64,000 bases of DNA from Syntrophobacter sp. SbD2. GTDB lineage: Bacteria; Desulfobacterota; Binatia; UBA9968. The notes beneath the pieces are model-generated. The model searched no databases. It worked only from the letters and a program-made list of their open reading frames with translations, and was not told where the DNA came from. This document shows positions 1-2,122 of this stretch, piece after piece. Positions within the stretch are counted from its first letter, which is position 1; each line of letters opens with the position of its first letter. The translations under genes and the position numbers were made by a program. The DNA lies in contig CAMDBU010000006.1 in assembly GCA_945889495.1 (NCBI GenBank), positions 506-64,505 on the forward strand, read 5' to 3'.

Positions 1-742
1 AGGATGATACTGGAGGCGAGGGCATTCACCGACGACTTTAGTGCTGCCGACTGTTCCGTCCGCATCGGCCAAGTGCCGCTGATCGAGAATCCGGCGCGAA
101 CGACTGCATCAAGAAAGGTCTCCCAGCCAGTGCTAGCGGTTCCGTCGATCCCGTCGCTTTCTGCCTGCTTGAAGGCGTAGTAGATGGTGACCGGAAAGGC
201 CGGATGCGACTGCTCCGCGAGGCGGTGCATCGCCTGAGTCATGCCGTCGAGGAAGAAGGTCTCGGCCTCCTCCTTGCTACCGTGCCGGTATGGCGACGCA
301 ACCAATTCCTCTGCCTTGGGCACCGCGACCGTTGCGAAGAGGTCTGGGAAGATCGGGCGTAGCGAGCGGCGTAGCCAGACGTAGAAGAAGTCTGACAGGT
401 CGGCATATCCGACGTTGTCGTAGTACGGCGGATCGGTGCTGACTATTGGTGCGTCAGCGAACAGATCGCTGGTCACTTGCGCCGCCGACTGCCGCGCATG
501 GCCGTTCTGATTTGAGCCGAGACTGAAAAGCACTTTCGCAGCATCGCCGTACGCACCTTCCCAGTCCCCGCCGGCGCCCGCAAACGGATTGCACTCGGGG
601 AAGTCCCACACCATCGGAATCGCTTGCCGACCGAACGCGCGTCCGCTTTTGCTCATATTTGCGCGCCACACACCCATTGAGCAGTGATACGAATTATCTT
701 TGAGACCGTTTCCCCCAGATACACGGCCACTGCCTCGGCATA
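1..742 (-). pseudogene. continuation of the same DUF1156 methyltransferase in a different frame (apparent frameshift somewhere between ~650 and ~750); runs off the window start
   Basis: Manual translation of the minus strand (codon phase ...441-443...) gives ...[108 protein letters not shown]...; DPPY is methylase motif IV; frame stays open to position 1 and overlaps the end of ORF 653..2122 out of phase. Confidence 0.6.
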
Positions 743-2122
743 CGCCGGCGCGCCACTGCCGCCGTCACGGAGTGGCTTGGGGTCGGCGGTAAGGCCGGCT
801 TGGAAAGCGTCGTGGTGCACCCGCTCGCGCGCTTCCTGCACTAGGTCGGAGAAGGTCGTCAGCGCCACGAGCTGGCGGCGGGTAAAGAGGTCGCCCCACG
901 TCGTGAGGCCGTAGGGCGTGCAGTTGCCACCGGTCATTCGCTTGGCGATCTCGCCCTCCGGCTTCCACGTCGGCTGCACGGTCAGCGCGAGGGCTTCCAT
1001 CTCCGGCGTCGGCGCGAGGTAGACCCGCCCGCGATCACCCTCGGCGACGATGGCCATCAGCCGCGCACCCATGCGCCCTTCTTTTCCCTCGGCCTTGATG
1101 TAGTCGCCCGACACCGGAGTGCCGGACATCAAGCAGGCAAAGTTCGCGCGCGACAGCTTGGTGCCGTTTTTCGCCCCCTCCGCGTCCTTCGGCTTGCCCA
1201 CCTTCACCGTGAACCGATAGCCGCCGTTCTCGATCATCGGCTCGACATATACCTCCCTGCCCGCCTTGGTGGAGAGCATGAAGGTTGAGACGAGCGGCAC
1301 GTCTACCCGTGCGAAGGCCGGGTTCGGACTCTTTACTGTTCGCGCCCAGAGCCAAGCGATCACGGTGAGCTTGCGGCCGACGTAGGGTTTGAGGTCCGAG
1401 CGATCTTTCGCAATCTCGGCTGTGACGTCGACCTTCGGATAAAGATGGCCGATGCGCTTCTCGGCTTCGTCACGCATCCATTTTCCATAGTATCGAACGT
1501 CTTCGGCGAGGCCTTGCGCGCCTTTCCAACCTGTCTGCGAACCGATCTTCTTTCGCGACTCGGGATTTACCGGCGGTTTGCCGGCAAACTTCGGCGGAAT
1601 CTCGATCATCGCTTTGTTGATCAGTACAGCCACGGGGTTCAAATCAGACGCATAAGATTCCAGACCGAGCCTCTGCGCTTCAAGTGGTATCGAGCCTCCG
1701 CCAGCAAATGGATCGTGAAACGCGGGAAGTTTATGCCGGTCGAATAATTCTTTAGCGCGCGGATGATCCGCGTTCTCCGCGCACGTTGCGCGCCAACTCT
1801 GCCAGATCTCGTCACGCGCGCGCTGAAGCACTTCCTCGTTGGTGGTGTTCTCCCACAGCACGAGATCCTCAATGATCTTGAAAAGCCGTTGTCGCTCTTT
1901 CTCTTGCGCCTTCTCGGTCTTGAAAATGTCCGGATGCGCCGACGGATCGTCCACCATCTGCGCAAAGATCACCGCCCGCGCCGCCGCCAACGGCCGCCGC
2001 GCCCACCACAAATGCAACGTCGACGGATGCCCATGCCGAATCGACTTCTCCCGCGCCGAAGCTTTGTTGATGGCTTCCAGGGGCAAAGCGACTTCGATGA
2101 GTTTTTTCTTGTATGCGGTCAT
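653..2122 (-). CDS. DUF1156-family (COG1743) adenine-specific DNA methyltransferase, N-terminal 489-aa portion; ORF terminates prematurely (continuation in another frame at 1..742)
   Basis: N-terminus [44 protein letters not shown] matches the DUF1156 signature; SAM-binding motif [14 protein letters not shown]; TGA stop at 653-655. Confidence 0.85.

Follow-up and report, generated by a model that had tools for sequence, protein, structure and literature searches.

Introduction

The Hma defense system, as recorded in PADLOC (Payne et al. 2021) and described for Halomonas meridiana (PMC11232893), comprises HmaA, HmaB, and HmaC and carries cargo between its core genes; insertions of foreign genes are found in 66.5% of hma loci (PMC11232893). 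Hma has been renamed the Type-1 DUF499-centred BREX-related system, and the methylases of the BREX-related (BR) systems share the architecture of those of Type-3 BREX, with an N6-adenine methylase core, a large insert after strand 2, and a C-terminal helix-turn-helix (PMC12839542). Defense has been shown only for HmaA of Halomonas, against phage T4: produced from its own promoter, with neither HmaB nor HmaC present, HmaA protected Escherichia coli and was not toxic (PMC11232893). At 14.7% of hmaA loci, hmaB is absent (PMC11232893).

In Type-1 BREX, mutation of the active site of the methylase BrxX abolished both methylation and defense without causing toxicity (PMC11842806), and pglX deletion strains are viable (PMC11842806, PMC6326788). 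BrxX/PglX thus offers a precedent for a viable genotype in which a dead methylase stands beside intact effectors. Unlike BREX, Hma has a dedicated helicase-nuclease effector and is without PglZ and BrxL. Here we describe an hma locus that, unlike the system as described, has its hmaB gene interrupted by a 1-nt deletion.

The hma locus and its surroundings

The window (the whole stretch of DNA that was analyzed, 64,000 nt) comes from an uncultured soil-type bacterium, probably Candidatus Binatia, and carries an hma locus that continues past window position 1 on the parent contig (L084). Apart from hmaB, which is set out below, the genes of the locus are as follows.

3002 to 6577, minus strand: hmaA, encoding an SNF2 helicase with a C-terminal NOV_C/PD-(D/E)xK nuclease, 1,191 aa, intact in the window
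2598 to 2915, minus strand: gene for a minimal nucleotidyltransferase (MNT), partner of the HEPN gene
2191 to 2601, minus strand: HEPN-domain gene, the other half of the HEPN/MNT pair, inserted between hmaA and hmaB
L084 12889 to 14649: three small genes between hmaB and hmaC, encoding a DuOB protein of 233 aa and DUF488 proteins of 207 aa and 145 aa (the latter DUF488-N3a)
L084 14661 to 18005, outside the window: hmaC, encoding a 1,114-aa HEPN_Swt1 plus DUF499 protein

HmaA contains the Pfam domains SNF2-rel_dom, Helicase_C, and NOV_C (DUF3883) and matches the PADLOC HmaA profile over its full length (1694.5 bits). Judged by such profile matches, the locus is an Hma system, i.e., a Type-1 DUF499-centred BR system: it has HmaA, an HmaB with motifs I and IV, and, on the parent contig, HmaC. 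With its frame broken, hmaB belongs to the system by descent and is not a working copy. The locus resembles the described ones in these three core components and in the presence of cargo between the core genes. Its HmaC is a HEPN-fused variant of the DUF499 ATPase. As cargo it has the HEPN/MNT pair in the hmaA-hmaB interval and the DuOB gene and two DUF488 genes in the hmaB-hmaC interval, whereas the Halomonas locus carries Septu. The DuOB and DUF488 genes may be either accessory to the Hma locus or cargo in it. The HEPN and MNT genes overlap by 4 nt and resemble a HepT/MntA toxin-antitoxin module, and MNT also matches the PADLOC candidate families PDC-S09 and PDC-M05A. A search against NCBIfam gave nothing further save a subthreshold match to another DUF1156 antiphage clade.

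A RecD2-type SF1B helicase (TIGR01448, 838 bits) is encoded at 7593 to 9953 on the minus strand, ~1 kb from hmaA, with an Amdase-family gene between the two; it is probably a housekeeping gene outside the defense locus. From ~13311 to 24000 the window consists of a strain-variable island with genes for H-NS, an integrase fragment, a DUF6641 protein, and AAA proteins; several other contigs end at 13311. A contig from ERZ27280197 (L086) ceases to match the window past 16125, within a long gene of coiled-coil/SMC-like type that has no Pfam match and encodes 932 aa in the window (13332 to 16130) and at least 1,223 aa in L086. The island also holds a Polynucleobacter-1 RNA (Rfam; 22534 to 22670, plus strand; 93.5 bits against a gathering score of 37). 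This motif was described from Betaproteobacteria, and the contig is otherwise Candidatus Binatia-like, the ClpB protein and an MFS transporter of the window having matches at least 90% identical that are named Candidatus Binatia; the RNA may have arrived by horizontal transfer.

hmaB is divided between two reading frames

The features of hmaB that bear on its interruption are the following.

653 to 2122, minus strand: 5′ open reading frame (ORF) of hmaB, 489 aa, comprising native residues 1 to 476 and 13 out-of-frame residues and ending at a TGA (655 to 653); contains the DUF1156 helical domain, motif I, β1-β2 of the methylase core, and the large insert
1694 to 1714, minus strand: S-adenosylmethionine (SAM)-binding motif I, DPFAGGG, residues 137 to 143
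1 to 764, minus strand: second hmaB frame, open from 764 (after a TGA at 767 to 765) to the window edge
693/694, minus strand: deletion site, one C of codon Thr477 (ACT) being absent between these bases
654 to 656, minus strand: ATG of Met490, overlapping the premature stop codon as ATGA; start of the 470-aa ORF called on the parent contig
423 to 434, minus strand: catalytic motif IV, DPPY, residues 564 to 567, now in the downstream frame

The initial annotation had described a 489-aa methylase ORF with a DUF1156 signature and SAM motif I that stops at 653, the DPPY motif and the remainder of the protein lying in another frame open from ~740 to position 1. The stop was seen as the TGA at 655 to 653, and the DPPY motif lies in a second frame that continues the same HmaB profile. 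This frame is indeed open to position 1; it opens at 764, not at ~740. The first ORF starts with an ATG at 2122 and carries DUF1156 (PF06634; Pfam, E = 3.6e-33) together with a weak match to the D12-class N6-adenine methylases that spans motif I. The second frame encodes native residues 478 to ~708 of HmaB from ~692 downwards, with motif IV in the stretch STDPPYYDN, and the gene runs on past the window edge to residue 959 on the parent contig. When compared with the PADLOC HmaB profile (967 positions), the first piece matched positions 8 to 492 (E = 1e-246, 819 bits) and the second matched positions 490 to 718 (E = 1e-108, 362 bits). The consecutive matches of the two pieces are far above chance.

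A search with both pieces joined returned two intact 959-aa proteins (P0001 and P0002) that were 100% identical to the query and continuous across the junction. When the contigs encoding them were aligned with window positions 1 to 12122, a single gap appeared; for the contig from ERZ27280197 (L081), the 12,122 nt aligned without a mismatch, this 1 gap apart. Over the full 21.2 kb that the parent contig shares with L081, the missing C was the sole difference, and within those 21.2 kb hmaA, hmaC, and all of the neighboring genes matched the contig of the intact allele. The initial annotation had proposed a comparison with orthologs for locating the indel; comparison with the intact alleles places it exactly, as one base missing between 693 and 694. 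The absent base (G on the plus strand, C on the coding strand) belongs to the sequence GATAA[C]TTCG, and its flanks are A and T, so that its position is unambiguous and lies outside any homopolymer. The junction sequences that tell the two alleles apart are GATAATTCG and GATAACTTCG.

These alignments bear on the suggestion that the two pieces are separate genes. The gene caller's listing of two ORFs is the one point in its favor, and we give it next to no chance: it is refuted by the single HmaB profile that covers both pieces consecutively, by the intact 959-aa alleles, which are identical save at the junction, and by the 1-nt gap in the alignment. What was found is the signature of a frameshifted pseudogene, namely, a single frame in close relatives, an indel that leads to a stop 13 codons on, and no compensating second indel. 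Across 80 orthologous genome loci, hmaB is a single continuous ORF in ~95%. In annotation, the label should be that of a pseudogene broken by a frameshift (or possibly of an assembly indel) in a known defense system and not that of two genes. In a scan of a genome collection, the species of the window was absent and the best match was 87% identical; a scan of JGI metagenomes with a pattern fitting either allele gave 0 matches.

Consequences of the break for the methylase fold

To place the break in the protein, we used an AlphaFold model of HmaB built from diverse homologues obtained in a representative search (pLDDT 92.7, pTM 0.91); an earlier model built from 89 close homologues (~75% identical) was unusable (pLDDT 58.9). 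Motif I lies on the strand formed by residues 135 to 137 of the model, the second strand (β2) spans residues 156 to 160, and the large insert follows. The core resumes with strands at 507 to 511, 541 to 545, and 560 to 563, directly before DPPY at 564. The site of the break coincides with the end of a helix (458 to 477), so that β1-β2 are divided from the remaining catalytic fold. The lost residues, 477 to 489, include W486, which is shared by at least 90% of the close homologues and by at least 90% of the distant ones. A Foldseek comparison of the model with the PDB gave only weak, generic methyltransferase matches, and searching the PDB by sequence gave none. Mapped onto the model, the sequence shows that the predicted N-terminal product keeps motif I and β1-β2 and lacks everything from β3 on, including motif IV and the helix-turn-helix domains at the C terminus. 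Such a product would be unable to methylate DNA.

A different outcome would follow if the two fragments together formed a functional enzyme, with translation stopping at 655 to 653 and reinitiating at Met490 and with the fragments (residues 1 to 476 plus 13, and 490 to 959) reassembling. The in-frame native Met490 does overlap the stop codon as ATGA, gene callers list the 470-aa ORF, merely 13 native residues would be lost, the break sits at the end of a helix before a loop where the large insert exits, and methyltransferases that naturally consist of two subunits provide a precedent. Even so, we regard a split methylase as improbable. W486, which is nearly invariant, is among the residues lost, the modeled Rossmann core would be cut between β2 and β3, and a Shine-Dalgarno sequence was not found upstream of the Met490 ATG. 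Only 17 of 112 homologues have Met490, which argues that the ATGA overlap is accidental, and the split is a one-off when set against the identical intact allele; a conserved split architecture was not found.

Recoding and phase variation

Defense methylases such as PglX are subject to phase variation, and a poly-G tract is present in the pglX gene of Streptomyces. A change of frame in hmaB might likewise be regulatory rather than damage, either through a programmed −1 ribosomal frameshift or through phase variation. Slipping by −1 at any point from 764 to 656 would yield a near-native protein again, and a G5A3 stretch lies at 716 to 709. Nevertheless, the interval searched, 780 to 641, holds no X XXY YYZ heptamer in the frame of the first ORF. 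The sole run of five or more identical bases near the site is the G5 at 716 to 712, which lies 19 nt away from the indel, and there is no low-complexity sequence nearby; the indel itself is outside any repeat tract. Both the identical allele and the great majority of the 80 genome loci consist of single ORFs, and four other hmaB frame breaks (see below) share neither position nor sequence with that of the window. The case resembles the phase-variable defense methylases in that a frameshift turns the methylase off and differs from them in that the indel is not accompanied by a repeat tract. Lacking a heptamer and a repeat tract, and with orthologues that are single ORFs, programmed frameshifting and phase variation were rejected as hardly credible.

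Mutation or assembly error

The initial annotation had offered either a genuine pseudogene or a sequencing or assembly indel, and these remain the only serious candidates. The deletion was read from an assembled consensus that derives from essentially one sample. Over every stretch compared, the window was 100% identical to contig k141_2265121 (76,713 bp) of ENA assembly ERZ27280223; the k141 prefix is in the naming style of MEGAHIT short-read assemblies and indicates that the window was cut from a contig built by MEGAHIT from Illumina reads. By default, MEGAHIT requires k-mers to have been seen at least twice, and it rarely introduces indels. The exact 489-aa product is recorded on two contigs of different size classes, one from NCBI (20 to 50 kb) and one from ENA, which are not necessarily independent.

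If the missing C were a consensus error in one metagenome assembly, hmaB would be intact in the organism. That the missing C alone separates the contig from the intact allele over 21.2 kb is what such an error would look like, and the deletion is seen in one ENA sample and one further contig, whereas four other samples that cover the site have the base at 693 intact. Frame breaks also occur in other hmaB genes from metagenome-assembled genomes (MAGs): ~5% of such loci (4 of 80 species-representative genomes) are frame-broken, and some of these are probably errors. In L007, a long-contig MAG that is probably derived from long reads, hmaB breaks at residues 469 to 471 (~7439 to 7455), only ~7 codons upstream of the site in the window, and that break is likely to be an error. 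The other breaks lie near residues 840 to 866 in L002 (~8603 to 8622), L069 (~2709 to 2757), and L078 (~4240), and the hmaB of L001 (~7554) ends early, at about residue 523; either errors or real decay could account for these cases. The deletion allele carries no secondary decay, which fits a very young mutation and an artifact alike.

Several observations speak against an error. The context of the site is nonhomopolymeric, the contig naming points to MEGAHIT assembly from short reads, the identical truncated protein occurs on the NCBI and ENA contigs of different length classes, and real inactivating mutations of the same locus are present in several independent assemblies (see below). Moreover, the contig with the deletion and the contig with the intact allele differ at window position 12817 and diverge beyond 16125, implying that the two contigs represent different strains and not one consensus. 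We therefore consider an artifact rather unlikely. The nonhomopolymeric context, the Illumina/MEGAHIT origin, the presence of the product on two contigs, and the independent hmaA lesions in the same species favor a real mutation, and we think it likely that the hmaB lesion is a genuine, recent loss-of-function allele, an ordinary event.

A second haplotype with lesions elsewhere in the locus

Sister assemblies revealed further lesions of the locus. A CAG-to-TAG change in hmaA (Q903*; G>A at window position 3871) removes the NOV_C nuclease domain and is present in four independently assembled samples (ERZ27265268, ERZ27265269, ERZ27280192, and SRR13399485). In hmaB, an R111L substitution (window position 1791) affects a residue that is invariant in 89 homologues and was found in ERZ27265268, ERZ27265269, ERZ27265271, and ERZ27280192. 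Wherever both sites were covered, Q903* and R111L occurred together, defining a second haplotype (L082, L083, L088, L089, L093, and L095). ERZ27265269 (L082/L088) carries, in addition, three missense changes in hmaA and a frameshift that shortens a G7 tract of hmaA to G6.

6449 to 6455, C7 on the plus strand: hmaA G7 tract on the coding strand, codons 41 to 43, near the 5′ end of the gene

A run of G or C was found at this position in 0 of 36 orthologous hmaA genes. The tract is lineage specific, and it is the sole candidate in the locus for a tract of the kind seen in phase-variable methylases. A nascent phase-variation site, a mutational hot spot, and an Illumina homopolymer error are all conceivable here.

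The suggestion, made with the initial annotation, that the frameshift may reflect decay of the whole system is supported at the level of the population, in which independent lesions occur in sister assemblies. It does not hold for the strain of the window, in which hmaA and hmaC match the contig of the intact allele. These data support the view that the defense locus is decaying in this population.

Discussion

The likely course of events at hmaB is simple. Loss of a C from the Thr477 codon leads to 13 aberrant codons and a stop, and the resulting HmaB product would be unable to methylate DNA. In the initial annotation, a broken methylase had been thought odd if the helicase-nuclease partner is active, an argument that is weakened by the published data on Hma and BREX (PMC11232893, PMC11842806). 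The strain might tolerate the loss in either of two ways: the methylase may well be needed for restriction too, as in BREX, or missing methylation may not by itself suffice to license HmaA. The outcome would then be a silent defense system and not self-restriction, and the most economical reading is that loss of HmaB would simply silence the system.

In decaying classical restriction-modification systems (orphan methylases, frameshifted R or M genes), as here, point lesions inactivate one component. The second haplotype follows the usual order, in that the nuclease is lost (Q903*) and the methylase ORF is kept. In the window, unlike in those systems, it is the methylase that is hit while the nuclease is intact, a combination expected to kill the cell if the system were of the classical Type II, in which the R and M activities are independent. 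That a live nuclease appears to be tolerated next to a dead methylase is in keeping with restriction that depends on the methylase in the manner of BREX. More tentatively, the window might represent an Hma genotype occurring in nature, in which the methylase is dead and HmaA and HmaC are intact and which would show that HmaB is needed for target sensing or restriction, as BrxX is in BREX, and not merely for licensing by methylation; we consider this to be conceivable, though doubtful.

If the deletion is real and the strain that carries it dominates the assembly, the locus would provide genetic evidence, obtained in situ, against a simple licensing of Hma restriction by missing methylation. 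One wild species shows reciprocal knockouts of a single hma locus in different samples, the methylase being broken in one haplotype and the nuclease being truncated in the other, and, on the same condition, one wild population would contain both of these knockouts of a barely characterized defense system. Defense systems are known for their quick gain and loss, and this locus adds a small piece of evidence to that picture.
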